Source: a virus
Lineage: Duplodnaviria > Caudoviricetes
Length of the DNA stretch: 64,000 bases
Strand: one strand, 5' to 3'
Virus record (IMG/VR): IMGVR_UViG_3300049892_000014
Span: 40,913 to 104,912 of that record
The stretch's first letter is position 1. Each line of letters begins with the position of its first letter. The position numbers were made by a program, and so were the translations under genes. Shown here in pieces: positions 419-25,050 of this stretch. The notes under the pieces are model-generated. The model was given only the letters and a program-made list of their open reading frames with translations, was not told the DNA's origin and did no database searches.

Positions 419-434
419 AATTTCGAGGTTAATT

Positions 435-1404: not shown

Positions 1405-1429
1405 TATCCTAACTACTGTCCGTTGTATT

Positions 1430-6499: not shown

Positions 6500-6509
6500 G
6501 AATACTCCT

Positions 6510-9406: not shown

Positions 9407-9558
9407 AGACTTCCTCCTTCTTTATGGTTATACTAACTTACTAAGACATATCTGTATCCAGATAGGCCACTGCGGCCAGGTTGTCTTAGTCACTCTTTCT
9501 ACTATCCTTATGGTACCGAGAACTATTTTACTAATCATATGTCACCTAACTAATTGCT

Positions 9559-9683
9559 CGCATAGCCAATGTCGGGATTTAAACCCGATCCCTTGACCTA
9601 CACCACATAGCAGGAGTCAAACCGTCTTAGGGTAGAGCTATGTTTCGGATGCTATCACGGCTAGCACGGCGCATTGGCTATGC
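9559..9683 (-). ncRNA. promoter-driven structured ncRNA, family unassigned
   Basis: 12-bp closing stem, two internal hairpins, T-arm-like UCGGG-UUUAAAU-CCCGA; own promoter. Confidence 0.6.
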
Positions 9684-9687
9684 GAAC

Positions 9688-9716
9688 AATATAACCTATT
9701 GTTCACAGATTGTCAA
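9688..9716 (-). promoter_or_regulatory. sigma70-type promoter
   Basis: TTGACA-17 bp-TATATT on the minus strand. Confidence 0.7.
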
Positions 9717-9734
9717 GATCTTTCCGATGCTAGA

Positions 9735-10037
9735 TTATTTCATACCTTCAAGGAGACATTCTAACTTTAGCATATCAAAATCATCCGGTGGAAGTTCCTC
9801 AAAATAAGTAGATAGCTTAGTCTGCCCGATGATATTAGGATGTTGGGACAGCCCTAATTTTTTACATATCCTACTCCATACACAGGGAGATAAAGTAAGA
9901 GTAGTTCCACGTAAAACATTACGCTCCATCATCTCTACGTTTTTAACAGGTCTACTTCTTTGCATATAGTCTACGTTGATCCAGAACATATACTTGCATC
10001 TCCTGGCACGTATCACTCTCTCGTATCTTGTACTCAT
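9735..10037 (-). CDS. hypothetical protein with shared C-terminal helix
   Basis: ends PPDDFDMLKLECLLEG. Confidence 0.65.
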   Translation of the reverse strand: MSTRYERVIRARRCKYMFWINVDYMQRSRPVKNVEMMERNVLRGTTLTLSPCVWSRICKKLGLSQHPNIIGQTKLSTYFEELPPDDFDMLKLECLLEGMK

Positions 10038-10038
10038 G

Positions 10039-10329
10039 TTAATCTCCTTGTAGAATTTCTTGTAGGTGAAACGCTTCCCATTCAGCCTTAGTGAAATTGA
10101 CCAATATCTTTAACCATTTCTTTCTTCTTCGGCTATCATATTGAGTGTTGATCTCAAATGTTTGATAAGATATTGGGTATCCTAGTTGTTTTTTAGCACC
10201 CTTAGACCTAACTATCCATTCGGTTTTCCAGTCGGGCCAATCACCATCTTTCGGATAAGACCAGCTAGATTCATCTACCTGCTTTACAAACTCATAGAAG
10301 TTATGGTTTCTACGATTCTTCCTTTTCAA
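10039..10329 (-). CDS. hypothetical protein with shared C-terminal helix
   Basis: ends TKAEWEAFHLQEILQG. Confidence 0.65.
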   Translation of the reverse strand: MKRKNRRNHNFYEFVKQVDESSWSYPKDGDWPDWKTEWIVRSKGAKKQLGYPISYQTFEINTQYDSRRRKKWLKILVNFTKAEWEAFHLQEILQGD

Positions 10330-10774
10330 GGGAATCCTTTCTCATGACGTATGTTGTAAACTGTTTATTAGTAATCAGAATAGGTAGCGGTAGAGCAATC
10401 AAACCCTGCCAAGTTCCAGAGGAAGTATAGCCATTAAGATTAGCTTTGTCATTCCTAACTGTAATATAGGCAGTTCCCTGCTCGTCAAGACGTTGATTGA
10501 TAAACTGAAGAATCTCCTCACGCTTCGCCGGTTCAGATAATGTATTTAATACATAGGTACATAAAATCGTCTGATAATTCCACGCTAGCCATGTTCTATT
10601 CTTATGGTATTGGTCATAACCTTCTATATCTAATAGCTTCGCATCTGTACCATAACCACATCCATAGTCAAGAGCTGGTTTAAGAATAAGTCCCCTATCA
10701 TTCAACATCCTTGCTGGTACGCTTAGCTTCCTTCTTTTAATCGCTGTCTTGTGTGTATTATCTGGTGACTCCAT
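10310..10774 (-). CDS. class I SAM-dependent methyltransferase-like protein
   Basis: LDYGCGYG motif I, GYD, YVLN. Confidence 0.75.
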   Translation of the reverse strand: MESPDNTHKTAIKRRKLSVPARMLNDRGLILKPALDYGCGYGTDAKLLDIEGYDQYHKNRTWLAWNYQTILCTYVLNTLSEPAKREEILQFINQRLDEQGTAYITVRNDKANLNGYTSSGTWQGLIALPLPILITNKQFTTYVMRKDSLEKEES

Positions 10775-10994
10775 GATTCCTCCAATCTAAAATACCAAAC
10801 ATATGGATAGCTTCCCATTGTTCGGGTGTTAATGTAGATAGAAACTCGTGGGTTCCGTCAATATCATTCTCATCACGGATGGCCCAATAATGAGCAGATA
10901 GTATTGGTTGTCCTATCTTTTTTCCAGAGACAGATAATTGGATGAAGTATTTATCATCCATACTTACATATTCTGCACTAATCTTAGCTCCCAT
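10758..10994 (-). CDS. hypothetical protein with shared C-terminal helix
   Basis: TPEQWEAIHMFGILD. Confidence 0.6.
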   Translation of the reverse strand: MGAKISAEYVSMDDKYFIQLSVSGKKIGQPILSAHYWAIRDENDIDGTHEFLSTLTPEQWEAIHMFGILDWRNHGVTR

Positions 10995-11250
10995 TACCAG
11001 ATCCCCTTCCCTCTATAACTTCTGTTAGATAGAATAACTCCCATTCTTCTTTAGTGAATTTCATCAGTCTTTCAGCAAACTTAGTCTCGCCTTCTGACTT
11101 TGTATAATGTCTATACGTAGACCCAGAAATAGACCTACCTATTGGTACTTGTACGTTTATCCAAGCTGAACTAGCATCTCTATATAGGTCAATGGTATCT
11201 AGTTCATTCTGCCTATATCTGAAGATAAGTCTAGTGTGATTTGTTTCCAT
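10984..11250 (-). CDS. hypothetical protein with shared C-terminal helix
   Basis: TKEEWELFYLTEVIEG. Confidence 0.65.
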   Translation of the reverse strand: METNHTRLIFRYRQNELDTIDLYRDASSAWINVQVPIGRSISGSTYRHYTKSEGETKFAERLMKFTKEEWELFYLTEVIEGRGSGNGS

Positions 11251-11268
11251 GACGCTCTCCTAACTAAT

Positions 11269-11281
11269 TGTGTTATAATAG
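11269..11281 (+). promoter_or_regulatory. extended -10 promoter (putative late class)
   Basis: TGTGTTATAATAG; same motif at 39992 and 45574. Confidence 0.6.
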
Positions 11282-11285
11282 CTAT

Positions 11286-11837
11286 ATGGGAAAAGATAAT
11301 TGGTTAGTTAAAAAAGAGGGGCCAGAACCTTTACTGGCAAAGAAAACTAAAGCATATCCAGAATGGGAAAGGGCTAATGTATCCTATTCGCATTGGCTCA
11401 GCGGTAGAACTGCTGAAGAAATTGAGAAGTTTACAGGAGTAGCTCTAGTCGAAGTGGAAAAGGATATAGCGCATATAGAAAGTGTCCTACCTTCTAAGAC
11501 TCTCATTGCAAACAACAACACTAGACAGCGCATCTTACTACAGCGTACACAAGCTAAAGCATACGCTGATAAGTTACAAGATGCACTCACTACTGATGTA
11601 GCAGCATATCTAAAAGCGGGATTAAACCCGACAACCCCTCTAAAAGAATATAGAGAGGCTGTCGGGATGACCGAAAAGCCTGGCGCATTAAACATTCAAG
11701 TCAATCAGCAAACTAACGTAACTACAGGCGTTAGCAGGACTGAAGATATTATTCGCTCCGTAATGAATAAGATGCACCAGAAGGAAGATGAGCCACCTAT
11801 TATAGACGTTGAGGCAGAAGAAGCTGAAGCTGTTTAA
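11286..11837 (+). CDS. putative terminase small subunit
   Basis: HTH-like N-terminus, helical middle, NIQVNQQTNV and IIDVEAEE tail typical of TerS; shares promoter motif with the TerL and portal operons. Confidence 0.45.
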   Translation: MGKDNWLVKKEGPEPLLAKKTKAYPEWERANVSYSHWLSGRTAEEIEKFTGVALVEVEKDIAHIESVLPSKTLIANNNTRQRILLQRTQAKAYADKLQDALTTDVAAYLKAGLNPTTPLKEYREAVGMTEKPGALNIQVNQQTNVTTGVSRTEDIIRSVMNKMHQKEDEPPIIDVEAEEAEAV

Positions 11838-13048
11838 TCTTCTTCTACTTGAATACAACGCTTAACCCAATCAGGCGGCTGACAGTTATAGCTGCCTACT
11901 TTAACTACAATGACTGGAAACTTGGGAATAAATTTACCCCAATCAGCATCGCAATCTGATACAATGACAAGAAAATCAGGTCTAGGCTTTAGTTGAGCCG
12001 CAGCCTCTATCCCTGGCCCCATATTTGTACCACCGCCACCAACTAAGGAAATCTGCTTCCTAGACTTAACCTTCTGAACATGACCAACGCTAGAATCATT
12101 ACTGATTACAGTAACGTCTACCGCCAGTCCCTTCAGGATGCCGTCAACCTCACCAATAGCATGGGCCAAGTCTTTATTAGACATACTTCCACTGGTATCA
12201 ATCTGTACGGCAACATTAGGCTTAGGCGCACGGAGACTTGGCATGATAATCTTGCCATATATAGACTGTCTTCTGGCTGGTCTGCTATAAGTATAGTTGA
12301 CCATACCTTGAGTTTCCCCGATCATGCCACGAATACATCCATTGAGAATTGTTCTCCATGGAACTGTACTCCTTAGCATGTCGTCAGCCCATCTCTCAAA
12401 GCCTCCAGGTATAGAACCCCTGCCCTTAGACCTTGCGTAATCCTGTATATCCTTTGCCACAGTATTCTTAATTACCTCTACTTCTTTACCTGTGACTCCC
12501 TGTACGCTACCAGTACCATCACCTTCTGGTACACTTTCATCATCGCCCTCTCCAGTAGCACATCCACCACAAGCTCCACCGCCTACTGTAGGATTAGGGA
12601 TTTGCTGTTTAATCTCCTCAGCCTTATCCATTAACAGCTTGAAGTATTCCTCAGCCATTAAACCTTCGTCAAAGCCAAAGGTTTCTTTGGGATAAATAAC
12701 TCCTTTGGGTAGCTTAATATCTTTAATATCATCGTTAATCTCACAGTCAGCCGCAAGATTCCAGATCATATGTTCCGCCTGGGATGATACGCAGGATCTT
12801 ATAGGATGATCTCTAAGTAAGTGCATGACCTCATGTACCATAACAGATGCTATCTCGTTAATACTCCATTGGTCAAATATACCAGAGTTATAAATCATCC
12901 TCCATCTCTTATCCACTCCCATCGTAACTTGTCCCGCAGTCCTACTGAGATCATCCGTCTCAATAGGAATAAGCGCAAACAATCCTGATGAAAAGTAGGG
13001 AAAGAGATACGCTGCCCTAAGTCTTGCGGCGCATATTCTTTCGTCCAT
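11834..13048 (-). CDS. metallopeptidase-VWA domain protein (DUF2201-like)
   Basis: HEVMH zincin motif, WNLAADCEIN, DTSGSM MIDAS, GGGT. Confidence 0.88.
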   Translation of the reverse strand: MDERICAARLRAAYLFPYFSSGLFALIPIETDDLSRTAGQVTMGVDKRWRMIYNSGIFDQWSINEIASVMVHEVMHLLRDHPIRSCVSSQAEHMIWNLAADCEINDDIKDIKLPKGVIYPKETFGFDEGLMAEEYFKLLMDKAEEIKQQIPNPTVGGGACGGCATGEGDDESVPEGDGTGSVQGVTGKEVEVIKNTVAKDIQDYARSKGRGSIPGGFERWADDMLRSTVPWRTILNGCIRGMIGETQGMVNYTYSRPARRQSIYGKIIMPSLRAPKPNVAVQIDTSGSMSNKDLAHAIGEVDGILKGLAVDVTVISNDSSVGHVQKVKSRKQISLVGGGGTNMGPGIEAAAQLKPRPDFLVIVSDCDADWGKFIPKFPVIVVKVGSYNCQPPDWVKRCIQVEED

Positions 13049-13319
13049 TGGGTTTCCCTCCTTCGTGATGTTTAATCAGCTCATAAGCCATAGTTTTATA
13101 TGTTTCAGTAATACTTCGGAGAGTAGTTTTCATTCCCTCTAGTTGACTGATGACTGTTAGAGCATCCTGTTCTGGAAGAATAAATTTAGGCCTAAACCTA
13201 TAGCATCCATACCCCTTGACTCTAGCAAATCCGTCATCATCTAGCTTAACCAACTCATCCCATAAAAGATATGGGAATAAGTCATATGACCAAAAAACAT
13301 ATTGTTTCTCTTTCATCAT
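13017..13319 (-). CDS. hypothetical protein
   Basis: ORF with GAGG RBS, packed in the operon. Confidence 0.6.
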   Translation of the reverse strand: MMKEKQYVFWSYDLFPYLLWDELVKLDDDGFARVKGYGCYRFRPKFILPEQDALTVISQLEGMKTTLRSITETYKTMAYELIKHHEGGKPNGRKNMRRKT

Positions 13320-13484
13320 AAATCCTCAATGTTAATTCCGTAATGCTGGAGTACAACAGCTTCCAGCTTCTCGACTTCGGTAACCCATTCAGCAGGTGGC
13401 TCAACTCCACTTTCATCTATAGCATCCAGTAGATCATTAGCGGCCTCCAATATATCCTTGGTTGAGTCAAGTATTTCATCAGTC

Positions 13485-13781
13485 TTAGACATATTTACCC
13501 CCCAACTTAATCATTAGTAAAATTTTCTCTAACTCATCTTCTGACTTGTTCATCAAAAACTTAATAGTATTCGACTGAGCGTGGTGTTCTCCTCCGTGTA
13601 ATAGCACAACAAGCTTACTTAATACAACATCATTCCACTCTCTGGGCATCCACTTCTTAATAGGATTACCATAATCGCCAGGGAATGTTTTGTATAGGAT
13701 AAATATGCCATTCACGTCGTAAAACCAACCCCACCCGTTAGTCGTATCAATCCATGTTCGACCTATTACACCCACTTCCAT
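13485..13781 (-). CDS. hypothetical protein with shared C-terminal helix
   Basis: ends SEDELEKILLMIKLGG; GGAGG RBS before ATG 13781. Confidence 0.6.
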   Translation of the reverse strand: MEVGVIGRTWIDTTNGWGWFYDVNGIFILYKTFPGDYGNPIKKWMPREWNDVVLSKLVVLLHGGEHHAQSNTIKFLMNKSEDELEKILLMIKLGGKYV

Positions 13782-13802
13782 ATATACCTCCAATTAGTAT
13801 TC

Positions 13803-13852
13803 AATTCCAGGCTCACCCTGAGCCAAGACTGAGCTAAGGGTGAGCCAAGATT
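13803..13852 (-). repeat. early-gene leader hairpin E1
   Basis: CAGGCT(13808)...AGCCAAG(13843) on +. Confidence 0.75.
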
Positions 13853-13857
13853 CAATA

Positions 13858-14952
13858 CTACCAGAGTCCAGCTTGCGTCAATACATCCTTAAACCGCATA
13901 GCTTCTGGCGGCGGGAGCGATGTAGACTTAGGCCGATTCTTAACAAGCAATCTAGCACAAGAAGCCGCTATGTCTGCCACGTTCAATTCGGCAGCTTTAG
14001 CCAACACTCTCCAACCATTCAGCCATCGCTCATTGGTGTTGTTACTGATAACGACAGCTGTTACTGAGGTCAGTAAGGCGTAAGCCCTATCTCCACGTTT
14101 AGGAAGAACAAGCTTTTCGGGATGAGCCAATACAACTTCAGGATCAGGCAACTCATCACCCTCTTGAAACTTCTTAAACTCTAGAGCTGGGCCGTCCCCA
14201 ACACATCCAGCTATAAGTTCAAAGACTACATCGTCAGAGTCTTTGAAACCAAACGCTCTAGCAGCAGCCAATAGCCTTGCAGCCATATCCCATGTTCTAT
14301 TACTTGGCCACGCTTTACCACGACTATCCTCATCCTTAGGAATAGCATTACGCAGATTAGGACGAGTGCGAACAAATGAAACTATCGCAGTTCGAGCTAA
14401 TTGGATATTAGCAGGTTTATCCCAATCTTTAGGAAGTTCCTGCTTTTTAGACTGCGGCCATCCAGAGATCATACCCTCAGACCATGAATCCAGAGTATCC
14501 GCAAAATCAAAGTGAACAAACCTATTAGCCAACGGAGGAGATAGCTCCCATCCATTAGCCGCTTGCTCAGGTGGATTAGCAGCAGCTACGATAGTGACAT
14601 GCTTAGGTAGCTGAAGATCACCAACAGCCTTATCTAAAACCACTCTAAGCAATGCACTCTGTACAGCCGGTGGAGCCGTAGAGATTTCATCTAAGAATAA
14701 GACTCCAGGAATATCGGTATTCAATCGGTGCGCCCAAGACGGCGGAGCATAATGTACAACTCCATCCGCACCCTGAATAGGTAGGCCGCTAAAGTCCGAA
14801 GGTTCACGGATAGCGGCAATAACTACCTCACAGTTCCAATCCATACTCTTTGCTACGTCAACAAACCAAGAAGACTTACCAACTCCAGGAGGGCCAGTTA
14901 GTAGCACTGGAACGCCCGCCAACATTGCAATAGTCATAGCTTTACCACTCAT
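13858..14952 (-). CDS. MoxR-like AAA+ ATPase
   Basis: GPPGVGKS, LFLDE, VQSALL, AAANP, LANRF; partner VWA gene downstream. Confidence 0.9.
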   Translation of the reverse strand: MSGKAMTIAMLAGVPVLLTGPPGVGKSSWFVDVAKSMDWNCEVVIAAIREPSDFSGLPIQGADGVVHYAPPSWAHRLNTDIPGVLFLDEISTAPPAVQSALLRVVLDKAVGDLQLPKHVTIVAAANPPEQAANGWELSPPLANRFVHFDFADTLDSWSEGMISGWPQSKKQELPKDWDKPANIQLARTAIVSFVRTRPNLRNAIPKDEDSRGKAWPSNRTWDMAARLLAAARAFGFKDSDDVVFELIAGCVGDGPALEFKKFQEGDELPDPEVVLAHPEKLVLPKRGDRAYALLTSVTAVVISNNTNERWLNGWRVLAKAAELNVADIAASCARLLVKNRPKSTSLPPPEAMRFKDVLTQAGLW

Positions 14953-15232
14953 ATGTTTTCTCCTTAAGTTATTGTTTTTTCTTCGGGTTGCAAATAGGAC
15001 AATCATCTTCCTGGTCTGAGATCCGATCAGGAACTAATGGCCATTGATTTAACTCGCTGACCTGGTTTAAGTCTCCAGTCCATTTTGATGATGTGCTATG
15101 GATAGTTACAGATGGTATCTTATACTGCTCTACCATAGACTTCACATCATTAAGTTTATGGATATGACGGCTAATAATCTGTCCGTCTGGCAGTGTGAAA
15201 TCAACTTCAAAACCTTTCGTCTTACTCATCGT

Positions 15233-16195
15233 TTACTCCTTTGGATATTTATTGATATAATCATAAGAATAATTGACTATATCATGTATTGATACTGCAT
15301 AGATAGCTTTTTCTGCTAACGCTACCCGTTCTTGAAGCTCTGCCACATAAGCGTCTACATGTGAACTATTCTCATGCTTACTGGTAACTGCCGCTATTTT
15401 TGTAGACAAAACTATCTCTCGTAAAGTATTCAGATTACCACCAGCGGCTAGCCAATCAGAGAAGTCTCCCTTTTCTGGAAGGCCTGGCAATTCTACTACC
15501 TTAACTAAATTAGCTAATGCAGCAATGCCATAGAGAATAGTTTTAGCATGTTGTTGTCCAGCCTGGTCATTATCAGGAATAATTACAACATTCTTTCCCT
15601 TAAACCATTGATTGTAATCTTCCTTCCAACTATTAGCTCCCATCGGATTAGTAGTAGCCGGTAGTCCTAACTTCCACATAGCATCAGCATCCTTCTCGCC
15701 TTCAACTATGTAGACTACTGGCCTATCTATCCATTCATTGATACGATATGGATATAGTTTAATATCTCCAATCCCAGGTTGCCAATCAGGATTATGCTCC
15801 CAGTCTGCAATGTTTCGATACAAAGCGTAAGACTTCTTATTGTTATCGTCAATAAACTTCTTGACCAATAAGAATGGATTACCCTTCGGATCTCTATAGA
15901 CGTGAGAATTAACAAAGTTTCCCTTTGTCCTAGCTCTTTCTTCCATAAGCCCCCTTTCTACAAGCCAAGTAATCACATCACTTACCTTGTTTTTATTACT
16001 GATAAAGAAAGCAAAGTCCCAAGCTCCTCCATGCTTACCGCAAGGCCCACACATCCACACATTCTTATCGGGATGTATGGTTAAGCTGCCATGTAGATCG
16101 TCATGATTGGGACAATGAAAAATAATCTGCTGTCCAACCTTTCGGTCAAACTGCAATCCAACAGTCTTAGCAATGGCTGAACAAGTGATATTCAT
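15233..16195 (-). CDS. DNA primase (CHC2 zinc finger + Toprim), no helicase domain
   Basis: CPNHDD..CGPC; VEGEKD; PDNDQAG; KGDFSDW. Confidence 0.85.
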   Translation of the reverse strand: MNITCSAIAKTVGLQFDRKVGQQIIFHCPNHDDLHGSLTIHPDKNVWMCGPCGKHGGAWDFAFFISNKNKVSDVITWLVERGLMEERARTKGNFVNSHVYRDPKGNPFLLVKKFIDDNNKKSYALYRNIADWEHNPDWQPGIGDIKLYPYRINEWIDRPVVYIVEGEKDADAMWKLGLPATTNPMGANSWKEDYNQWFKGKNVVIIPDNDQAGQQHAKTILYGIAALANLVKVVELPGLPEKGDFSDWLAAGGNLNTLREIVLSTKIAAVTSKHENSSHVDAYVAELQERVALAEKAIYAVSIHDIVNYSYDYINKYPKE

Positions 16196-16687
16196 GATAG
16201 CCTATCCATTAAATATTCTAGGTTCATTTGTTTGTATACAATTCTTTTAATTGTATTTGGAGCTAGTTTATACATGATGCCTAGGGTTTCCAAGACTTCA
16301 TTCTCTATATATTGCACATTCTTGCCGTCACAGTCATGCCTCCAATGCGGGCAATCTCTCCAAGATGCTAAGATATTTCTATCTCTATTCATTATGGCTA
16401 TTTTTCTATCTAATCTTTTCATGTTTATCACCTATTAAATCTGATAATTTAATCAAGATGGATAAATCATTTAACTCGTAAATAGATTTTGCTATTGCAA
16501 GCAAATACTCTTTATCGCAATTCAAGCAACAATCGTAACCTAAGTTAATGGTAACGCTATCCGGCCCATGCTTTTCACAATGCGGATAATTATAACCTCT
16601 TTCAGAAATATTGATAGGCGCACCAGTCATCGCCACACCCCTATTCCTACTATAAGTTATCGTAGCTCTCATACATCCTCCTATAGT

Positions 16688-16724
16688 AAACATTCCCAGG
16701 CTATACAGAGTATAGCCAAGGATA
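16688..16724 (-). repeat. early-gene leader hairpin E2
   Basis: CATTCCCAGGCTATAC-AGA-GTATAGCCAAGGAT. Confidence 0.8.
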
Positions 16725-16728
16725 AAAA

Positions 16729-17739
16729 CTAAGTAGTGATGATATGTTTTGGATTGTTTTTAGTTACTTCCAATAAAACATCCAAAGCGGAAGCTTTTAC
16801 ATCATTGCCAGTTCCGAAGATAGCCGACTCCGCCCTAAGCATGTCCTCGGTTAGATTCTTTCTTTTAGCTGTACTACGAACACTCTTTTCATGGTCTACA
16901 TAAGCATTAATAGCTCCAAGCAGAGAATAGGCAGAACCCTTAACTTCTGGCACTACGTTGTATTGATTATTGTCAAACAGCTCAATAATCCGAAGCATGA
17001 CATTATCACGCCTTGTACTCTGATCTCCAGGAAATACCTGATCCAAGGCTTCTGCCATACTCTCCTTAGTCATATCACGTTCCGCTAAGATATTCAACTT
17101 CGCTTGAATATCCTGAGAACTTAATACAACTTGATCCATAAGACTCTTAGCAGCCGCTAACTTACGCTCTGCATTAGTCGTATGTTTAATCCTTAAAACT
17201 TCTCCATTACCATATCGCAATGCAGTCTGTAGAGAAGTTCCACGCTTCACATTGATATGTGTAAGCCTAGCTGTAGTAGCCATAGATCCATCATGGCTAG
17301 AAGCAAATAGGATATGGGCTTTATTCAAATCGTCAGTCCCATTGATAAAGAAGTCACAAGCAGGACAACGTACTAATACCCAAAAGACATTGCCATCTCC
17401 CAAAGCTCCAGCGGACTCATAATGAGATCCTCCCGCTTCTCCTATGAGAGTATCGACAAAGTTAAAGGCGTATTCAAACTGTAATGGACGATATACGCTG
17501 CCAACTGTAGCAAAGAATCTATCGTTATCATCTCTGAATATACCAAAAGCGTTAATCTTTTCACCCGAACCATTCGGATGAACTAACTGACGCTTAGAGA
17601 CTGTGAAAGTTAAATGAGCTAGTTGCCTAGCTTGTTCCCAGGTTACTGGCTTATCTGATACTTGAGACAAACCATCGGCCTGGCCTACTACAAACGACAT
17701 ATACTCGTTGCTGAGTACATCAAAGGCCATGCTTTTCAT
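16729..17739 (-). CDS. DUF932 family protein
   Basis: R.D....F..VG..Y..LQ, ESAGALGDG, SSHDGS, KHT, NAYVDH. Confidence 0.82.
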   Translation of the reverse strand: MKSMAFDVLSNEYMSFVVGQADGLSQVSDKPVTWEQARQLAHLTFTVSKRQLVHPNGSGEKINAFGIFRDDNDRFFATVGSVYRPLQFEYAFNFVDTLIGEAGGSHYESAGALGDGNVFWVLVRCPACDFFINGTDDLNKAHILFASSHDGSMATTARLTHINVKRGTSLQTALRYGNGEVLRIKHTTNAERKLAAAKSLMDQVVLSSQDIQAKLNILAERDMTKESMAEALDQVFPGDQSTRRDNVMLRIIELFDNNQYNVVPEVKGSAYSLLGAINAYVDHEKSVRSTAKRKNLTEDMLRAESAIFGTGNDVKASALDVLLEVTKNNPKHIITT

Positions 17740-18053
17740 AAATCCTCCCCATGAAATGCGGCATCAGCTATCGCTTCTACTTCTTCATCACTAGCGTAGC
17801 CAATGAGAGCTTTATTGATAGGAAAGCCATCATCATCAAAAGCTTTAATAGCTTCCATATCAGTATCTTCGCCATCGTGATCTTTGAGACATTCACGTTT
17901 ATAAGACTCTGTTTCTTCTCTTAGCTGGATCAAAGTCTCATCAATCATGTTTGCCAATATATCCCTGCCTTCCGAAGATGACAAGTCAATCTTGTCTATC
18001 TCTTCACAGACAGTCCAAGCGGCACCATCATTGTCTTCGATGACTAATATCAT
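17736..18053 (-). CDS. highly acidic small protein
   Basis: 31 D/E vs 8 K/R in 105 aa. Confidence 0.65.
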   Translation of the reverse strand: MILVIEDNDGAAWTVCEEIDKIDLSSSEGRDILANMIDETLIQLREETESYKRECLKDHDGEDTDMEAIKAFDDDGFPINKALIGYASDEEVEAIADAAFHGEDL

Positions 18054-18065
18054 ATTCCTCCTTGG

Positions 18066-18725
18066 TTAGTTATTGTAATACTCACTTTCATACCTATCCA
18101 TGTACTGCATATTCCCAGGATCTTCAATAATCAATGCTAACCTTGCGCATCCAAGAGAATCTTTCGGTACACTTGTTGGAGTTGAATCGAAGTCTAGTCC
18201 AAAATGCTCAGAAAATCTTCGAGACTCAGCCATCTTAGTTTCGGCAGCATTTAATTTCCATCGCTTAGACCAATTCTCTCTAGCACGAACAACTTTAAGT
18301 GCTAGAATATCTATATCATCCCTATAATCTTTTAATATAGACTGTAGATGATGATGATATGGCTTCCTATACTTAGATAAGTGAACACGAAATACTTTGT
18401 ATCCACTCAGTAATTCCATATGATCATCAGACCATATGTTATGGTTTCTGATGGCATGAAACGCAGCATAGCTATGCTGTCTAGTAGTTTGAGACTTACT
18501 ATCAATACAGTTTAGAAAGACACACTCATCCTTCCCCTCCATTCTAACGAAAGATGCGACAGGATAATGCGCACCAAAACTATAAAGGGTATCATTTCTA
18601 TAATATAGTGAGTAATCTGTATTTCTAGCATGGTCTTGCTCTTTTTCAGCCCACAACTCTGCAACTCTACGATTGTTATATACTATCTTTGGTCGTTTCT
18701 TTTTCAGAGTAATAGAAATTTCCAT
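18066..18725 (-). CDS. conserved phage hypothetical protein
   Basis: VAELWA, LYSFGAHYPVA, SQTTRQH; coupled to upstream gene. Confidence 0.65.
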   Translation of the reverse strand: MEISITLKKKRPKIVYNNRRVAELWAEKEQDHARNTDYSLYYRNDTLYSFGAHYPVASFVRMEGKDECVFLNCIDSKSQTTRQHSYAAFHAIRNHNIWSDDHMELLSGYKVFRVHLSKYRKPYHHHLQSILKDYRDDIDILALKVVRARENWSKRWKLNAAETKMAESRRFSEHFGLDFDSTPTSVPKDSLGCARLALIIEDPGNMQYMDRYESEYYNN

Positions 18726-19183
18726 TAGTCTAGCTCCTTAAGAGTCCATAGTATATCACTATCAACCCTACGCAGTCCAATCCAATAGCCATGCTTCTCA
18801 TAAGTTACCTTGCGCTCCCAACCAATCTTGGGCAGAACAGGAATATGATAGCCATTAGGATCAGACTGCTGACATAAGATTTTAGCTTCACTCTCAGTAA
18901 TATAATACAATCCATTACTGAGAAGTCTTTTTTCTAAATCAAGCTTCATAGCCACTCCTGCATAGGCTTGCAATTCTCTAGCTTCTTAACAATTGAAGCC
19001 TCATGAGTGTGGCCATCCTGGGTTAGTATTTCAGATATAGTAGGTGATTTCATATCGCAAATTTGCCTAACTATATCCAACATTGTACGATAGTGTGCAT
19101 TGATCTCATTGAGACCTGAGACTTCTCCACACAACGGACAATAATCATCTTGCCACGACATATACATACTCCTTTCACTAATA

Positions 19184-19293
19184 AATCAACCCCAGTCTAC
19201 GCAGGTCGCTTAAGCTAGAATCTTTCCAGAATGATAGGCAGACACTCAGCCTATCAAACTCGTCCTAGCCCTCTCTACACGTAGACAAGAGCA
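19184..19293 (-). repeat. early-gene leader hairpin E3 (compensatory variant)
   Basis: CAGTCTACG...CGTAGACAAG. Confidence 0.65.
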
Positions 19294-19308
19294 AAGCTAT
19301 TAGCGGGA

Positions 19309-19446
19309 TTATTCAGTTGCATACACTAACTGTATGCCACTAACTAAGCACACTATGGATAGCCAAGCTTTAGGGCCAAGAGTATGAGCTAAGAGACCAT
19401 ACCCTATAGCTATTAAAATATATCCAGCAAATCTTATAGACTTCAT
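19309..19446 (-). CDS. small membrane protein (45 aa)
   Basis: MKSIRFAGYILIAIGYGLLAHTLGPKAWLSIVCLVSGIQLVYATE; AGGAGG RBS. Confidence 0.55.
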   Translation of the reverse strand: MKSIRFAGYILIAIGYGLLAHTLGPKAWLSIVCLVSGIQLVYATE

Positions 19447-19459
19447 GGAAGCCTCCTTT

Positions 19460-20071
19460 CTAAAACTCAAACTTATCTTTCCCACCTATAACATTCATCA
19501 TCTTATCCATTTCAAAGCGATACATTTCTTCGTCTGATAATCCATAATTGATAGACCATTTAGTAGCTTCGTTGAGATCTGAGACAGTTTTGAATAAAGT
19601 CTCTAGCTCTTGATAAGTCCAATGTTTCCAATATGACGTAGTAGGCTTATCATCTGAAAATAATTTATTAAACCTATCTCTAATTGACGCCTGGTATTTT
19701 ATGGATAGTAACTCCTTATAACAATTCACATCTAAGGCAGCTATACTACCATAATAATTTACCTGAGATATATTATATTTATTACTCAACAGTATGCGAT
19801 AGATGCTGTCAACTCTATTCATAAGGCAATGGCCATCCCGATAAATTCCTAAATCTTTTCCCTTAACCATATAGCCATCATGGTCAAACATTACAACTAA
19901 ATTAGCCGGTCTATCCATATAAGCCATAACAACATTTCCCATAAACAAGAAATCCCGTATAATTGTGACTTCCCGTTTACCTTTGTACTTAAAAGATGCG
20001 TATTTCTGTCCACGCATCCAGGCCATGGTTACTCCTGCAATATCTGAATAAATAGCTTTTTGCTTAGGCAT
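19460..20071 (-). CDS. hypothetical protein with shared C-terminal helix
   Basis: ends RFEMDKMMNVIGG; AGGAG RBS. Confidence 0.65.
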   Translation of the reverse strand: MPKQKAIYSDIAGVTMAWMRGQKYASFKYKGKREVTIIRDFLFMGNVVMAYMDRPANLVVMFDHDGYMVKGKDLGIYRDGHCLMNRVDSIYRILLSNKYNISQVNYYGSIAALDVNCYKELLSIKYQASIRDRFNKLFSDDKPTTSYWKHWTYQELETLFKTVSDLNEATKWSINYGLSDEEMYRFEMDKMMNVIGGKDKFEF

Positions 20072-20090
20072 CCTATCTCCTTTCTCAAAT

Positions 20091-20146
20091 ACACATTCCC
20101 AGGCTTAACAAGCGTCGTTCCAATTACACCAGTTAAGCCAAGGATA
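20091..20146 (-). repeat. early-gene leader hairpin E4
   Basis: CATTCCCAGGCTTAAC...GTTAAGCCAAGGAT. Confidence 0.8.
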
Positions 20147-20217
20147 CATATTCGATATCCTATTTAGATGTGGAGCCTATCCCTAAACAGCACATAATAG
20201 ATAGACTTGTGGCTTTT

Positions 20218-20394
20218 CTACATATGGGTATCCTCCTTTCTTTTTATAGGAGAAACATAAGTCTTACCATTTCGTAGTTTACACATACCCAAAGCTTGAT
20301 GGCATAGCCTACTATAGTGGCAGCACCAGTTTTTCTTTAGCAAACCCTTATTCCACAAAGATTGACAGTCTCTACATCGCTTTGGGCATTTCAT
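20218..20394 (-). CDS. small Cys-rich protein (58 aa)
   Basis: MKCPKRCRDC...WCCH...LCH...MC; ATGA overlap with the NADAR stop. Confidence 0.5.
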   Translation of the reverse strand: MKCPKRCRDCQSLWNKGLLKKNWCCHYSRLCHQALGMCKLRNGKTYVSPIKRKEDTHM

Positions 20395-20849
20395 TTGTAC
20401 TCCTGTGTAATCTCATCTCTATGCTCCATAAGCAGGATTCCTAGCATATTCTGCCCAGTATGCCCACAGTCTGGGCAATGACATATACCCCAGAAGGTCT
20501 CATGGATGTAGTTACCATACTGTAGATCAACTGGATAAGTTTCCTTGAGCATATATTTTAATAACTTATCCAAGAATTTAACCCTTATAAGCGTTCTCAT
20601 GATCTCTAGTTTATATGTTGACCAATCAGGCCTCATATTGGACAGTATGCCAGCTCTGATAGCGTATGTGGGATACTTTTGCTTTCTTATATACTCACGA
20701 TACTGCCTACCTTCTTCGGTTTCGCTAGACATCTTAGAAGCCTGATAAGCATGTTCCACAGTTTTGTAATAGACTCCATCAAACAATATAGGCTTACCTA
20801 TATAATTATTTGAGAGAAAGCTATTACCTTGTTTGAAGAATCTTATCAT
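20391..20849 (-). CDS. NADAR family hydrolase
   Basis: FLSN, TVEHAYQASK, RPDW, KF, FWG, GQNMLGILLM..R. Confidence 0.9.
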   Translation of the reverse strand: MIRFFKQGNSFLSNNYIGKPILFDGVYYKTVEHAYQASKMSSETEEGRQYREYIRKQKYPTYAIRAGILSNMRPDWSTYKLEIMRTLIRVKFLDKLLKYMLKETYPVDLQYGNYIHETFWGICHCPDCGHTGQNMLGILLMEHRDEITQEYK

Positions 20850-21080
20850 TTTGTCTCCTAACTCCTACAAATAAAAAACCCGATCACCCTTAACATAGGC
20901 TGTTCGGTTATATTTCCAATGTCTATTAGACTCAGTCCATCCAGAATTAACTAGCCCATTCTTTACTCTAATCCATATTCTCCTACACTCCTCAATCGGA
21001 GCATAGTAAGGATAATACACATGAGCAAAGACTACTCTTTGTTTCTTATTCTTCTTCTTTTTCATAGTCTATCCTCCATA

Positions 21081-21120
21081 AAACAATCCCAGGCTTAATC
21101 CGAAGATTAAGCCAAGGTTA
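21081..21120 (-). repeat. early-gene leader hairpin E5
   Basis: CAATCCCAGGCTTAATC-CGAA-GATTAAGCCAAGGTT; UUCG loop on the minus strand. Confidence 0.8.
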
Positions 21121-22214
21121 TTCTATGAGTCTTTACTGAACATTCTTGACTGTATCTTATATCTAGCAGTCCTATCCTGTCTAAATCCAGGATTAAGACT
21201 TCCACAGTTTGCCCTACGAGTCATCTTAGGATTAGACTGATGGATTAGCCTAGTCTTCTTGTTGACCTCTGACTTCCACAGTTGAGCTAGACTCATTGAT
21301 ACTCCTGCTAGATTTTATAGTTAGAATCATCAGCACAGCTCCTAATAGATAAGCTATTGCCTTATCATATTGGGTAGAGTGCAGTAGAGAATCCATACCA
21401 ATAAAGGTACAGTAGATACCTAATATGCTCACAACGATTAGACATACAAGATTAAACAAATGCCATAGCAATGACAACATATAGTCTGCCCTCCATAAGC
21501 AGGATTAAATACAACCTCCACAACATCCCTGTCTAACTTCGGCATTAACTACATCTATTGCCTCAGCCTTTGCTTCTTCTGGAAAGCCTTCAGGCCATTC
21601 ACTAATAAGCCATGGGCCATATTCTACATTCTCTTCCCATTCCTTGGTAAACCATACGCTTCCACCCGAAGACATACAGTATTGTGGAAACGTAAACTCT
21701 TGGCCATCTACCTTGAGAACCAGAATACCAGAGCATAGATTGGGATACTGACCGCTATAAGACACAAACTCAACAGTCATAACTCCTCCTTAGAGATAGT
21801 TAAGTCTAGCCTGGTGCATAACACCATGCCATTTATGAACAGGGACACAACTTGTAATCTTATCCACTATTGCATCAAGACGCTTAGTCCATAGCCTTCG
21901 ATCCGCATAAGACAATGGAATGTAATAATCTGCCCCTATAGGCATACAATGATGAGCGTCTATAGGTGACAGATAAAAAGCTACATTACGCCAAACATAA
22001 TAGATAGAGGCATCTCGAAAGTCATATTCTCTATACTGTCCGTAATGCGTATCATCTGCTGGCTTAATGATCGAAGATATTGGAGGCTTACTAGCCCTAA
22101 GAACGCCACCAGAGTTAAGGATAGCTCTTGCTATACCTAACTCATGTTCATCAAACTGTTTTTCATCAAGTTCAATTTTAGGCATATCATACATAGTGTT
22201 TCTCCTTGGTTAAT

Positions 22215-22346
22215 AAATCAATCTCAGGCTCAATCTAACTGTTCTAGTCTTACCATTATCGCTATTGCGGCATCTGTACAGCTATTCCATTCGGTTGCCT
22301 ACAGTTTTGCCAGACCATACTATCGCATAGTATTGAGCCAGAAACA
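22215..22346 (-). repeat. early-gene leader hairpin E6 (long variable top)
   Basis: CAATCTCAGGCTCAAT...ATTGAGCCAG. Confidence 0.7.
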
Positions 22347-22974
22347 AAGCTATCCCTCTGAGTTTAATACTTCGGGTTCACTCACTTCAAAATCTACAGT
22401 CTTAACTGGAGACGTATAGATTGTTTCACTACCAAAAGGCTTAAATATCATCTTAAAGCCTATGGTAATGTATTCACAAGCTGTGAACACGGGACAAAAC
22501 TCAGGGTGTCCCTGGATATATAGACGATTGCTTACTTCCTCAATCGTATACAGTGTGTTAATGGTTTGTACCTTAATCTTCATCGCATTACTTATCCTTT
22601 CCTACTGTGGTAGCCAAATCAAAGCCGCCATAGTATCCATTGTGCTTGTTGTGGGTTTGACAGACTATTACTCCATTATCTGTGTAGATACGGAGAAACA
22701 TAATCTCATGACGATCATCTTCATAATCATCTGGGACATCGTTGACAGACTCAGTCTTAATACTGACAAGCTTAGCATTGTCATAAGACGAAAGATCATC
22801 ATCGCAAGTCATATATCTATGCTCACAACAAGACTGTCCTCCATCCCATATGCTCAGGTTAGTCTTGTCTGTGAAATGCAGGATAAGAGTATCATTCTCC
22901 ATCTCTACAGACGCAATAGTCTTACCAAAGCAATCTTTTGCATCCTGATCCAAGTACATATCTTCCTCCTATAT

Positions 22975-23017
22975 AAACCATTCCCAGGCTTGTCCACGTG
23001 TAGACAAGCCAAGGATA
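22975..23017 (-). repeat. early-gene leader hairpin E7
   Basis: CATTCCCAGGCTTGTC...GACAAGCCAAGGAT. Confidence 0.8.
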
Positions 23018-23031
23018 ATCTATAAGCAGGA

Positions 23032-23421
23032 CTATTCTTGATAATCATCCAGAGGATACTGCATAGCATACTCTATGCAATCCTTCGACTCTTTCAATCC
23101 CTGAGCCGTGAGCTTGCGATACAGTTGTATCATGTTAATCTTATTGGCCAGAGTATTAGTCCGTGTAGCGTATTCGACAATAGCTCGGCCAATCTTAAGC
23201 AATCCCCCATCAGGACGGACAGGCTCCCAAGCATTGACAAACTCAATCTCATCGTTCTCACCATGTATGCGTTCAGGCTCAAATATATCCCTGCAAGCCT
23301 GTCGCAAACATTCCAATTCGAACCATGTCTTATAGGGAACGTCTACAATCTGTCCATTGTTATCCTTAATACTATAGATATAATACTGATCCATATGCTT
23401 TTGAATAGTAATCTTAGTCAT
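23032..23421 (-). CDS. protein with ribosomal L7/L12 C-terminal-like domain
   Basis: KINMIQLYRKLTAQGLKESKDCIE. Confidence 0.65.
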   Translation of the reverse strand: MTKITIQKHMDQYYIYSIKDNNGQIVDVPYKTWFELECLRQACRDIFEPERIHGENDEIEFVNAWEPVRPDGGLLKIGRAIVEYATRTNTLANKINMIQLYRKLTAQGLKESKDCIEYAMQYPLDDYQE

Positions 23422-23445
23422 AAAACCTCCATGGTTAGTGTAAAC

Positions 23446-23487
23446 AAACAATCCCAGGCTAGTCCACGTGTAGACTAGCCAAGGTTA
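23446..23487 (-). repeat. early-gene leader hairpin E8
   Basis: CAATCCCAGGCTAGTC...GACTAGCCAAGGTT. Confidence 0.8.
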
Positions 23488-23863
23488 AATGTTTACCTTT
23501 CGGAGTAACGCTTGTCCTCATCACACTCATTAGCAGGACTATTGAAAGCCTTGCTATTCTGTAGATGCCGTAGGTAGAATGAATGGTCTGCTATACGCTC
23601 GTCTATGAGAAACATAGGACGATTAGTAGACTCATCTATCCCGATTATAGAACCATCGCTGTTTTCCTTAATTCTCACGATTCTGTCTCCTGGCCACAAC
23701 TAAGGCCTGTGATTCTGGTTTAAGTTTAAGACATGAACTGCACATATGTTCACTGGCCGATATAGCCTGTAAACTATCTACAGTGTGAAGGTTGCCACAG
23801 ATAAGACAATTGTAAGTGTATCCAACTTTATCGGGTTGCATAGTGTATTCTCCTTGGTTAATA

Positions 23864-23936
23864 AAACAATCTCAGGCTTAGGGATGCTTTCGAGGCAAAT
23901 TATAGAGACAAGCCGACTCTACCTAAGCCAAAGACA
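23864..23936 (-). repeat. early-gene leader hairpin E9
   Basis: CAATCTCAGGCTTAGG...CCTAAGCCAA. Confidence 0.75.
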
Positions 23937-24087: not shown

Positions 24088-24128
24088 AAAAAAGAAAGGC
24101 TAGAGCGTACAGAGGATACACTCTAGCC
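24088..24128 (-). terminator. intrinsic terminator
   Basis: GGCUAGAGUGUA...UACGCUCUAGCC followed by UUUCUUUUUU on the minus strand. Confidence 0.75.
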
Positions 24129-25050
24129 AGTAAACCTAGACAGCCTTTAGAACTGTCACTGTAGGTTTCACCTAGAGACTCGCTATTACACTATCTCTAG
24201 GTCTATCACCTATTAGGTAGATAAGTTTTGTGACTTAGCAGGCTACTATTTATCCAGATAAAGAATATATAGATTACCGCCTGTTTTGGGTAACGCTAAG
24301 TCCTTCGCCCCGCATATCTTATACTGATTATGACCGCTTATTTACCGCCACCATTGAGTGATACGCTTCACAGTCCACATGTAGACAGGATAGAATACTA
24401 TCCTGGGAAGTGTTCCGCTTTAGTCTTGGCTTCGCCAAGTCCCGATAAGATATACTATTAGCCGCCCCTGATCTGTAGTCTGTCCACATGAGATAACAAC
24501 AATGCCCCCGTTACTCTGTATCCTGCACTCTCTTTTGCTAGAGCCGTACAATCTGCACTCCGCATAAGCAGGACTCTTGGGCTTCCACCGCCAGTATAGA
24601 ACGATAGACTACAACGATTGGTTTAGGTACAACCACTCCTAGTTTGGATAGGATCTTTCGTCATTGGCCGTTGTCTATACAAGCTATCAGGTTGAGTCCT
24701 TCTCAACCATCAACCTAGAGATACTACCTGCATTGCACAGTTTGTCTCTAGGCCACTCGTACCATCAAGTATTACGTCCCCTAAAACCATTGACTGTAAC
24801 ACTAAACGACTTATGATCCCGTTCTAATTGTCTTTGGCGCATTGCCTATCCGCCGACTGCAACCTCATTGGATAGGAGCTAGGTTATCCTTCACCTTAGC
24901 TGTTCTCTATGGCTTGCTCACCAACTTACTGTAATCTGTCTATACTAGCTCAGCCTAAGTGTTAGCTCATTGCCTTGATTAGCAGGACTTTGTGTATTCC
25001 TTCTGTAGTGCTAATCTGCTAGGAGAGCGTATACAAATTGTCTCCTAACT
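24088..25050 (-). ncRNA. candidate large structured ncRNA (~1 kb)
   Basis: no ORF of 60 aa or more in any frame; more than a dozen hairpins and long-range stems; ends in a terminator. Confidence 0.55.

Follow-up and report, generated by a model that had tools for sequence, protein, structure and literature searches.

Nine hairpin elements with a fixed base and a variable top precede gene blocks in the leftward early-type region of an uncultured phage

Nine minus-strand elements between gene blocks

The window analysed here, a stretch of 64,000 nt, belongs to the 105-kb, 82%-complete genome of an uncultured phage. An earlier note on this DNA had described nine hairpin elements ahead of early genes, and all nine were located at the positions given there, each on the minus strand; a search of the whole record (104,912 bp) returned no other copy. 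The elements are as follows.

E9: 23867..23933, minus strand; base CUUUGGCU/AGCCUGAG with a ~47-nt top; the next ORF called downstream is a zinc-ribbon ORF (57-aa, ATG 23841).
E8: 23449..23484, minus strand; top formed by a GUCUAC..GUGGAC module with a CACG loop; upstream of a 129-aa ORF (ATG 23421); 57.9 bits with the covariance model.
E7: 22979..23014, minus strand; close twin of E8; upstream of a 123-aa DUF7448 ORF (ATG 22959); 59.8 bits.
E6: 22219..22343, minus strand; base UUCUGGCU/AGCCUGAG with a branched insert of ~105 nt; upstream of a 134-aa ORF (ATG 22194).
E5: 21084..21117, minus strand; 13-bp hairpin with a C(UUCG)G loop; upstream of a 66-aa ORF (ATG 21065); 50.6 bits.
E4: 20094..20143, minus strand; UAAC/GUUA above the fixed base, 22-nt top; upstream of a 203-aa ORF (ATG 20071); 48.7 bits.
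E3: 19187..19290, minus strand; the GTCT/AGAC variant, base CUUGUCUAC/GUAGACUGGGG (GGCU/AGCC changed to GUCU/AGAC), with an insert of ~80 nt; upstream of a 73-aa ORF (ATG 19167).
E2: 16691..16721, minus strand; 11 pairs plus the U.U mismatch, UCU loop; the shortest copy in the window, beginning 8 nt past the DUF932 stop codon; upstream of an 88-aa ORF (ATG 16672); 53.8 bits.
E1: 13802..13850, minus strand; after a MoxR-type AAA gene and upstream of a 98-aa ORF (ATG 13781); contains three tandem 5' half-sites, UCUUGGCUCA, CCCUUAGCUCAG and again UCUUGGCUCA.

The exact 3' box, AGCCTGRRAWTG, occurs eight times, every time within one of the nine elements; with up to one mismatch it gave 11 matches against 2.3 expected, a number that none of 100 shuffles reached.

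The placement of the elements is highly regular. Each intergenic gap of more than 50 nt between 24060 and 13485 contains one element, and the genes between elements in this block (24.06-13.5 kb) overlap or stand no more than 24 nt apart. The order within a unit is stop codon, a gap of 5-19 nt (74 nt in E4, the one exception among the window copies), hairpin, A/U-rich tail (4-7 U per 10 nt), SD and start codon, and the stop codon of the upstream gene accounts for most of the TAG-containing 5' flank. Measured over 28 elements, the SD lies 6-18 nt from the end of the 3' box and the start codon 16-27 nt past it, in agreement with the earlier statement that the hairpins end just ahead of an SD and start codon on the minus strand; the SD is never included in the hairpin structure. 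A linear motif, TCCYGCTWAT, often stands 8-45 nt upstream of the elements, and TCCTGCTTAT is found 8 nt upstream of E7. From this layout we infer that the elements separate the translational units of one long leftward operon of early type, which would be read as a single transcript.

Transcription signals were at chance level across this region. Between 9 and 27 kb, sigma-70-like matches numbered 55 (52 in shuffles) and terminator-like matches 10 (10 in shuffles), with none of either kind called at an element, and a consistent -35/-10 pair is absent from the elements. The true terminators of the same genome, at 25348-25314 and 24128-24098, have long U runs and were both called by the terminator scan. 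In the elements, the first base after the stem is A in 25 of 29 cases, the U's are interrupted and no U run abuts the stem. On these sequence grounds we rejected the element as a promoter or terminator, since its signals are at shuffle level and no U tract abuts the stem. The window held no Rfam match at the gathering score, and between 13600 and 25400 nothing appeared at E<=1 except one chance miRNA match.

A covarying base that folds on the transcript strand

The fixed base of the hairpin consists of two C-G pairs, a U.G pair and a U.U mismatch, followed by GGCU paired with AGCC; above it the top is free and ranges from a 3-nt loop to an insert of ~105 nt. Conservation extends to UURU in the 5' flank and to ~12 nt of the 3' tail, in which the U's at +3 and +10 after the stem are invariant in all 29 tabulated elements. 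The consensus first given for these elements was thus right in its fixed base and variable top, and too short in its fixed stem, which reads CCUU GGCU / AGCC U GGG and includes a conserved 1x1 U.U mismatch and the U.G pair. Its upper-stem pairs, the compensatory change in E3 and the UUCG loop of E5 were each correct on inspection of the sequence.

A covariance model seeded with five window copies and five copies from relatives recovered the non-seed elements E1 (E 1.8e-10), E9 (E 1.4e-8) and E6 (E 1.3e-3) and missed E3 in the window; a base of the E3 type without the insert is present in a relative (L137:3651-3690). In the model-fitted alignment of 21 members from six genomes or contigs, pairing was found in 97.2% of cells, and double-sided changes were found at 10 of the 12 pairs. 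The covariation score was 0.65, compared with 0.22 in shuffles, was equalled by none of 500 shuffles and collapsed once the 3' partner was slid. Variants of the base (GGAU/AUCC, AGCU/AGCU, UGCU/AGCA, GUCU/AGAC and GACU/AGUC) retained pairing in every case, in the base of E9 a C-G pair has been replaced by U-A, a compensatory change, and E7 and E8 differ by a compensatory U-A / A-U swap. The earlier note had claimed such covariation and had suggested a covariance-model scan of relatives; the statistics above bear it out. The hairpin structure is real and under selection.

The folded strand is that of the transcript. For 27 of 30 elements the sense strand gave the more stable fold, with a mean of -19.1 against -14.8 kcal/mol (Wilcoxon p 3.5e-6), as illustrated by E8 (-18.7 sense, -14.5 antisense, kcal/mol) and E3 (-38.5 sense, -25.1 antisense). 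There are 61 G.U pairs among the elements, including the nearly fixed U.G, which is C.A on the opposite strand, and loops of the RNA type, C(UUCG)G and C(GAAA)G, are present. This strand preference identifies the RNA as the folded form.

Relatives and gene mosaics

A further 21 copies lie in five related metagenomic phage contigs; a search of ~80 more distant loci found no copies. In the five contigs DUF932 is 51-81% identical, and elements occupy orthologous slots with wholly different tops over the same base and tail. The E2 slot, for example, is occupied in L050:11021, L054:9800, L057:777, L137:6283 and L138:3139, and weakly (E 0.29) in L139:1290. Conserved, uncharacterized small proteins, encoded by 74-aa, 86-aa and 105-aa ORFs, are common to the same narrow clade of phages.

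It had been suggested that breakpoints of gene gain and loss in relatives be compared with the positions of the elements, and the outcome was mixed, with some breakpoints at elements and others at tight junctions inside blocks. Homology with the closest relative, L050, breaks off within the 5' bases of E2 (16716) and E1 (13843) and resumes just past the hairpin of the relative, and the gene blocks are permuted between the two genomes. Both flanks of E6 are 89-93% identical to L050:4699-4831 though the adjoining genes differ, E7 and E8 have 84% identity to a non-orthologous L050 copy, and L054 holds near-identical copies at two loci in which the hairpin itself is identical. Gene content also varies at tight junctions within blocks, such as those around the NADAR gene, genes inserted after E1 have no second element behind them, and contigs from DNA runs, whose source is unidentified, have loose ends that fall inside genes. 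Junctions inside blocks and contig ends inside genes indicate that exchange also takes place away from the elements. The sequence comparison makes exchange at the modules plausible: with nine near-identical segments of 30-40 nt, homologous exchange there could swap tops and re-join gene blocks.

Possible roles of the elements

The elements most likely represent a new form of an established type of phage signal. The earlier analogy with the hairpins of T7 and SPO1/SP82 proved apt as regards placement, as the elements sit between cistrons ahead of ribosome sites; the intercistronic position upstream of a ribosome site that characterizes RNase III sites was found in all nine, within a co-oriented block free of above-chance promoter and terminator signals. 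Like the T7 early region (R0.3, R0.5, R1, R1.1, R1.3), the block has multiple conserved, covarying hairpins in the gaps of what would be a polycistronic early operon; every hairpin precedes the next start codon by some tens of nt and has a conserved single-stranded or loop segment on its 3' side (..GGCCUUUAUGAUU in T7, ..AGCCUGGGAWUG here). T7, however, conserves a 9-10 bp upper stem and the 3' strand of an internal loop on a lower stem, ~20 bp in total, whereas here the base is conserved and the top free, with 3 bp below the mismatch and only 8-10 pairs in some members; moreover, cutting is proven in T7, whereas the present elements are putative processing sites.

Repeated hairpins of the T7 and SPO1 type are reportedly RNase III sites, a finding said to go back to Dunn & Studier and to Panganiban & Whiteley (1983). 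The latter work is referenced within PMC4838370. Direct inspection of the SPO1 host-takeover module located repeated intercistronic elements at 7114-7211, 11777-11851, 12194-12272, 12381-12526 and 12698-12793. As in the SP82/SPO1 Bs-RNase III sites, fixed flanks surround a variable hairpin and end just ahead of ribosome sites of the AAAGGAG type. The SPO1 elements differ in having a second hairpin and a conserved frame of greater length, in promoters that also lie in their gaps, and in showing no sequence or model similarity to ours (the best R1 match in SPO1 reached 15.1 bits, on the wrong strand).

Most likely, the elements mark sites of cutting or capping in a long early message. More specifically, we favour, at about an even chance, a role as punctuation for intercistronic processing and stability combined with a standard ribosome leader. 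The module would punctuate the polycistronic RNA of a leftward messenger of early type: an endoribonuclease would cut at or beside the end of the fixed helix, where the conserved GGGAWUG tail resembles a site of the RNase E type, and after cutting the hairpin would cap the product end and protect it from exonucleases. Every block would also have its first gene supplied with one common leader for ribosome loading, unstructured, U-rich and shielded from the upstream coding sequence.

RNase III itself is a doubtful candidate for the putative cut, given shortest stems of 8-10 bp and a single-stranded tail that does not vary. RNase III sites usually span ~20 bp overall. The E. coli enzyme requires an 11-bp helix from cut to loop (PMC1540722). 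Most members offer 11-15 or more pairs from the very base, but only 3 bp of them lie below the U.U mismatch; L054:640, L054:3117 and L137:3651 have 8-10 pairs in total. If RNase III is the enzyme, its cut would need to fall right at the foot of the stem. Conservation is strongest at the helix end and along the single-stranded tail; this is partly at odds with RNase III, since a double-strand-specific enzyme would not read these parts. Domain searches of the 82%-complete phage genome gave no match for RNase III or Sigma70_r2. No T7-type RNA polymerase domain was matched either, a negative that is uninformative because the profile was silent in all control genomes as well. Self-cleaving ribozymes, which would have been independent evidence of cutting, were sought in the same slots of related loci and none was found.

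Invariant single-stranded positions suit a sequence-specific binder equally well as a nuclease. The elements may be operators for an RNA-binding protein of phage or host, which would bind the helix end and tail and repress or activate translation of the first gene, or load an antitermination factor, with no cutting. The pattern is that of a protein footprint, in that the helix end (CCUU / UGGG) and the two tail U's are most invariant, the pairs above them do no more than covary, and the top varies freely. The closeness of the site to the SD, the limitation of the family to a narrow clade sharing the three small ORFs, and the second motif upstream are also in its favour; a hairpin with an upstream linear motif recalls the boxA-boxB arrangement. 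We nevertheless consider operators unlikely, as the early proteins tested matched no RNA-binding family, nine per operon would be unusual for repressors or nut-type sites, and the SD itself is always outside the structure.

We judge it quite unlikely that the module is a passive leader, neither cut nor bound, that would shield the ribosome site from upstream coding RNA and block exonucleases entering from elsewhere, with the U-rich tail as a standby or enhancer. All members do share a uniform leader of hairpin, A/U-rich spacer and strong SD, the stems are small but stable, and the hairpin follows closely on the stop codon in all window copies except E4. This leaves unexplained, however, why the helix-end sequence, the U.U mismatch and the tail persist in phages that share only 51-81% protein identity, when other stem positions vary without restraint.

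A function mainly at the DNA level, as sites that shuffle gene cassettes, is very unlikely, whether of the attC kind, folded as a single strand and cut by the tyrosine recombinase of the phage, or of the T4-type PeSL kind. The elements resemble attC in being imperfect hairpins whose base is conserved, with an unpaired internal position and a terminal structure of 3 nt to >100 nt, one between each pair of co-oriented cassettes. The tyrosine recombinase claimed by the earlier note was found at 6510-7085, in the same operon and adjoining an SNF2 gene that is placed differently in L050 and L054; block permutation, homology ending in hairpin bases and the tandem half-sites of E1 would also fit. Yet the attC-like alternative raised in that note failed in three of four respects (core sites, integrase and strand), leaving the variable terminal structure over a paired base. 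The R''/R' cores (RYYYAAC / GTTRRRY) are absent, the elements ending in CCUUGGCU and AGCCUGGGAWUG with no conserved AAC/GTT pair. An IntI-type integrase has ~320 aa or more and an IntI-specific insertion; none is present in the phage, whose recombinase is a 191-aa protein with a catalytic-domain match only, lies ~7 kb beyond the last element and has no homologue in the examined parts of the hairpin-carrying relatives. Selection acts here on the sense, mRNA-like strand, as the fixed U.G shows, whereas in attC it acts on the bottom strand; the tail conserved here is asymmetric and linked to the ribosome site, and the insertions after E1 are not bounded by a second element. A PeSL combines a consensus sigma-70 promoter with a terminator stem-loop, and exchange at such sites is documented for T4-type phages (PMC2839356, PMC4122927). 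The present elements likewise are short conserved intergenic stem-loop motifs among small ORFan genes, in a plastic early region where the gene content of relatives differs, but they have neither of these two defining signals.

Weak intrinsic terminators or attenuators grading transcription along the operon are highly improbable, for although a hairpin is followed by a U-rich stretch and the true terminator at 24128-24098 shares the GGCU..AGCC stem start and scores weakly with the model (E 0.028), the A after the stem and the interrupted U's speak against them, the tail-side helix end is the weakest part (U.G, U.U), and the scan that called both real terminators called none of the elements.

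There is a very slight chance that the elements are dual-use joints, in which the base, besides its RNA role, would fold on transiently single-stranded sense DNA during replication and be used by the small tyrosine recombinase. If so, the phage would possess a cassette platform with no relation to integrons, one by which blocks of early genes are moved and permuted.

Anatomy and genomic setting of the elements

The nine hairpin elements that an earlier note had placed on the minus strand, E1 (lowest coordinate) to E9 (highest), are all present there. In sense orientation, each upstream stop codon is followed by 5-19 nt (74 nt in E4) ending in UURU, by the hairpin itself (CCUU-GGCU, a variable paired top and AGCC-U-GGG) and by a conserved tail, A-W-U-R-A-N-U-W-W-U. 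The SD lies 6-18 nt, and the start codon 16-27 nt, beyond the conserved 12-nt 3' box. The described layout of a fixed base and a variable paired top before the SD and start codon stands, but the fixed part is larger than had been claimed. The window contains exactly eight copies of the 3' box AGCCTGRRAWTG, all at element sites (11 matches against 2.3 expected when one mismatch is allowed), and there are none elsewhere in the whole genome (104,912 bp searched); E3 has a variant base, GUCU/AGAC. The minimum-energy fold is alike in nearly all copies, with C-G, C-G and U.G pairs, a 1x1 U.U mismatch and an uninterrupted stem above. Across 29 tabulated elements, the four pairs directly above the mismatch covary, and four positions never vary, namely the mismatch U, the G after it and two U's of the tail. 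At the small end, the tops are a UCU triloop (E2) and the C(UUCG)G loop of E5, also seen earlier; at the large end, they are branched inserts of ~80 nt (E3) and ~105 nt (E6). In E1, three 5' half-sites stand in tandem.

The window makes up the right 64 kb of a linear 104,912-bp IMG/VR virus record with an estimated completeness of 82%, and the DNA runs containing it derive from metagenomes of freshwater and freshwater sediment. Megablast found no DNA-level relative among cultured phages, and the terminase shares no more than 26% identity with those of named phages. Leftward genes extend from ~25.6 kb down to ~1.5 kb, almost all with strong ribosome sites of the GGAGG type, and encode NADAR, DUF932, primase, MoxR-type AAA, VWA/metallopeptidase and radical-SAM proteins, a small tyrosine recombinase, an SNF2 helicase, a polynucleotide kinase and many small ORFans. 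Between 24060 and 13485, every gap longer than 50 nt holds exactly one element, and the genes lying between elements overlap or are at most 24 nt apart, so that each of nine translational units has an element at its head. Other features of the block are as follows.

Features of the leftward gene block
4523-6499, minus strand: SNF2 helicase gene; in the related contigs L050 and L054 it directly follows the DUF932 hairpin, a shift of ~10 kb on window coordinates
6510-7085, minus strand: 191-aa tyrosine recombinase, matched in its catalytic domain only, directly upstream of the helicase gene
18102-18160, minus strand: degenerate element-like sequence, TCTTGGAT..ATCCTGGGAATA, inside the end of a 219-aa ORF
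23032-23421, minus strand: 129-aa early ORF after E8, with a weak sub-threshold match to the ribosomal protein L7/L12 C-terminal domain (E 5e-4, residues 92-119)
24098-24790, minus strand: non-coding stretch of ~700 nt that separates the first leftward ORF from the early block, terminating in a classical terminator (24128-24098), without an Rfam match and strongly conserved in L050 (3700-4310; identical blocks of 18-33 nt); a candidate large structured RNA

The degenerate sequence was rejected as a tenth copy: its inner pairing is poor, its start codon is more than 50 nt off, it is unconserved in relatives and it was missed by the covariance model. It is probably a chance occurrence or a relic.

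Covariation, folded strand and distribution of the family

A covariance model seeded with five window copies and five from relatives retrieved the copies left outside the seed, E1 (E 1.8e-10), E9 (1.4e-8) and E6 (1.3e-3), with no further credible match on either strand of the window. Extending the search to relatives, as had been proposed, was productive: related contigs found with the DUF932 protein as anchor contain 21 further copies.

DUF932 identity to the window in related metagenomic phage contigs
L050: 81%
L137: 62%
L138: 59%
L054: 58%
L139: 56%
L057: 51%

No element was found at ~80 metagenome loci with a more distant DUF932 (at most 45% identity), where the gaps after DUF932 hold unrelated hairpins or terminators, and DUF932 as a single-protein query had no match among viral contigs. 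The exact element pattern gave 41 single matches in IMG/VR, approximately the chance estimate, and only two of them score with the model, both weakly.

In the 21 members aligned by the model, 97.2% of cells are paired and both partners have changed in 10 of the 12 pairs, figures to which a model-fitted alignment is somewhat favourable. The covariation score for these members is 0.65, against 0.22 after shuffling (none of 500 shuffles reaches 0.65), and sliding the partner by one column lowers pairing to 48-60%. The register is not in doubt, because the anchoring flanks are nearly invariant. Compared with its complement, the sense strand has the more stable fold in 27 of 30 elements (p 3.5e-6). 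G.U pairs number 61, and on the opposite strand the almost constant U.G would become a C.A mismatch. Therefore, the selected structure is that of the transcript, although formally it could be that of the sense DNA strand instead.

Intercistronic early-operon hairpins are a known kind of element. Rfam has no family that matches the present one, whose design of fixed base, free top and invariant tail is unusual and whose function is predicted.

Proposed processing or end-capping and candidate readers

We give about an even chance to the reading that the elements are RNA punctuation modules, that is, candidate processing and/or end-capping hairpins with a standard leader. The hairpin would direct processing of the early message and/or cap the RNA end, and the module would supply the first gene of each block with a standard, U-rich, unstructured leader. 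Intercistronic hairpins that cut and stabilize long early messages are textbook matter for T7 and SP82, and the early RNase III sites of T7 and the SP82/SPO1 sites are processing or end-capping hairpins that also provide leaders; references to them are given in PMC4838370 and PMC5371410. Few such families are known, and all have been ascribed to RNase III, with helices some two turns long as its substrate. In T7, viewed directly, five early gaps have an upper stem of 9-10 bp and, on a lower stem, a UAUGAUU strand, both of them conserved. In SPO1 (positions 1-14000), likewise viewed directly, the host-takeover gaps have repeated fixed-frame elements around variable hairpins before AAAGGAG sites; at least five copies of the frame GUUGCUAGU .. 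variable hairpin .. AUGGAGCC-N4-GGCUACUA stand just before ribosome sites and provide a useful comparison set for fixed-frame processing elements. Unlike both, the E1-E9 family fixes the helix end, with only 3 bp below the mismatch, and its invariant positions are single-stranded.

These two properties, together with members of only 8-10 pairs, under the 11-bp minimum measured for Escherichia coli RNase III (PMC1540722), make RNase III itself, the enzyme favoured by the earlier note, an unlikely reader. Domain search found no RNase III domain in the phage; if the elements were simply sites for the host enzyme, they would be an ordinary new member of the RNase III-site class. Instead, the short fixed helix end, the U.U mismatch, the invariant single-stranded tail and the free stem point to a different reader, either a nuclease of the RNase E/Y type or a sequence-specific protein. 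A cut of the former type in the GGGAWUG tail, which resembles an RNase E-type motif, or recognition by such a protein is at least as likely as RNase III. Protein binding could also make the element an operator, a reading we consider doubtful; phylogenetic profiling for a partner protein carries no information, because DUF932 is the sole gene shared by the distant loci. A passive insulator or leader, which would keep the standard leader but give the invariant tail no reader, appears improbable. Sequestration of the SD by the 5' strand (CCUUGG against CCAAGG) applies to few members only and hence is not general. No trans-acting RNA complementary to the 3' box was found within the window, and no ribozymes in the corresponding slots of relatives. 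In metatranscriptome run X5, nine small, 100%-identical contigs fall in the early region, where DNA carry-over is possible; one spans E3 and stops within the 3' strand at 19192, although contig ends are meaningless here.

Promoter-like and terminator-like consensus matches between 9 and 27 kb are at shuffle level, none of them at an element. TTGGCT as a -35, TAGNTT or TAGAAT as a -10 and N4-type hairpin promoters were all rejected: spacing varies with the top, the TAG in the 5' flank is the upstream gene's stop codon in most copies, and the phage encodes no large virion polymerase. Domain search gave no match for sigma region 2, and a search for a T7-type polymerase, also without a match, carries no information because its control matched 0 control genomes. 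At the two clear minus-strand terminators (25348-25314 and 24128-24098), G+C-rich stems pass straight into long U runs; in 25 of 29 elements an A directly follows the stem, and the weakest pairs adjoin the tail. Attenuation is the least probable reading of all.

A separate motif, TCCYGCTWAT, often followed by AG, occurs on the minus strand at 24978, 24564, 24077, 23942, 23529, 23022, 21495, 20428, 19299 and 5723. Most occurrences are on the sense strand of the leftward block, just past stop codons and 0-45 nt ahead of a hairpin element or SD, and the motif is conserved in L050 and L054. It is not recognizable as a promoter. Readings of TCCTGCTTAT as MotA-box-like or as similar to the Bacteroidetes -7 motif were rejected too; TCCYGCTWAT often abuts the SD, and SD use is strong. 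The motif may serve as a further RNA signal tied to the hairpins.

Gene-block boundaries and possible exchange between copies

Long DNA homology with L050 runs through DUF932 and ends within the 5' base of E2 (16716), and again through the AAA gene to end within the 5' base of E1 (13843); in L050 it restarts directly past the hairpin's tail. The orthologous E1 and E2 slots retain base and tail around a wholly different top, and E1 is followed by three extra small ORFs in the window, one in L054 and none in L050. E6 and a copy at 4705 in L050 are ~90% identical in either flank, although they stand between unrelated neighbouring genes, and the E9-headed and E6-headed blocks stand in reversed order in L050. 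E7 and E8 differ by a compensatory swap, each being 84% identical to a non-orthologous L050 copy; in L054, the hairpins of two copies from separate loci are identical and their flanks nearly so. The homology ends, the near-identical copies and the E1 half-sites fit exchange or gene conversion between copies. Gene content differs also at tight junctions within blocks, for example around NADAR, and in the DNA runs the loose ends of contigs fall within genes. Some elements thus coincide with gene-content breakpoints, but the association that the earlier note proposed to check is not exclusive.

A DNA recombination site is very improbable. The attC-like version, suggested earlier as a lesser alternative in which the window's tyrosine recombinase would shuffle cassettes, was not borne out: variable terminal structure, common in integron attC sites, is one of four defining features and is shared, whereas the core sites, integrase type and folded strand all differ. 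The promoter and terminator that characterize PeSL (promoter-early stem-loop) cassettes of T4-type phages are likewise not found in this family, although the exchange behaviour of the elements may be like that of PeSLs.

An inverted repeat of 14 nt, GTCTAC-NN-GT(A/G)GAC, has 26 strand-matches against 1.5 expected. It is found in both gene blocks, in coding as well as non-coding DNA, at 6904, 11109, 15353, 19273, 22992, 23462, 24373, 26376, 37520, 49510 and 62636 in the window, and four further sites lie within the genome's first 40 kb. E7 and E8 have it as their top, E3 has it as its base and many hairpins of relatives have it as their top, and at 26376 it abuts the SD of a plus-strand ORF (26401).

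The putative punctuation signal is compact and portable (30 nt) and is a possible natural operon insulator. Copies stand where related phages have re-joined gene blocks, which bears on the shuffling of phage early regions.
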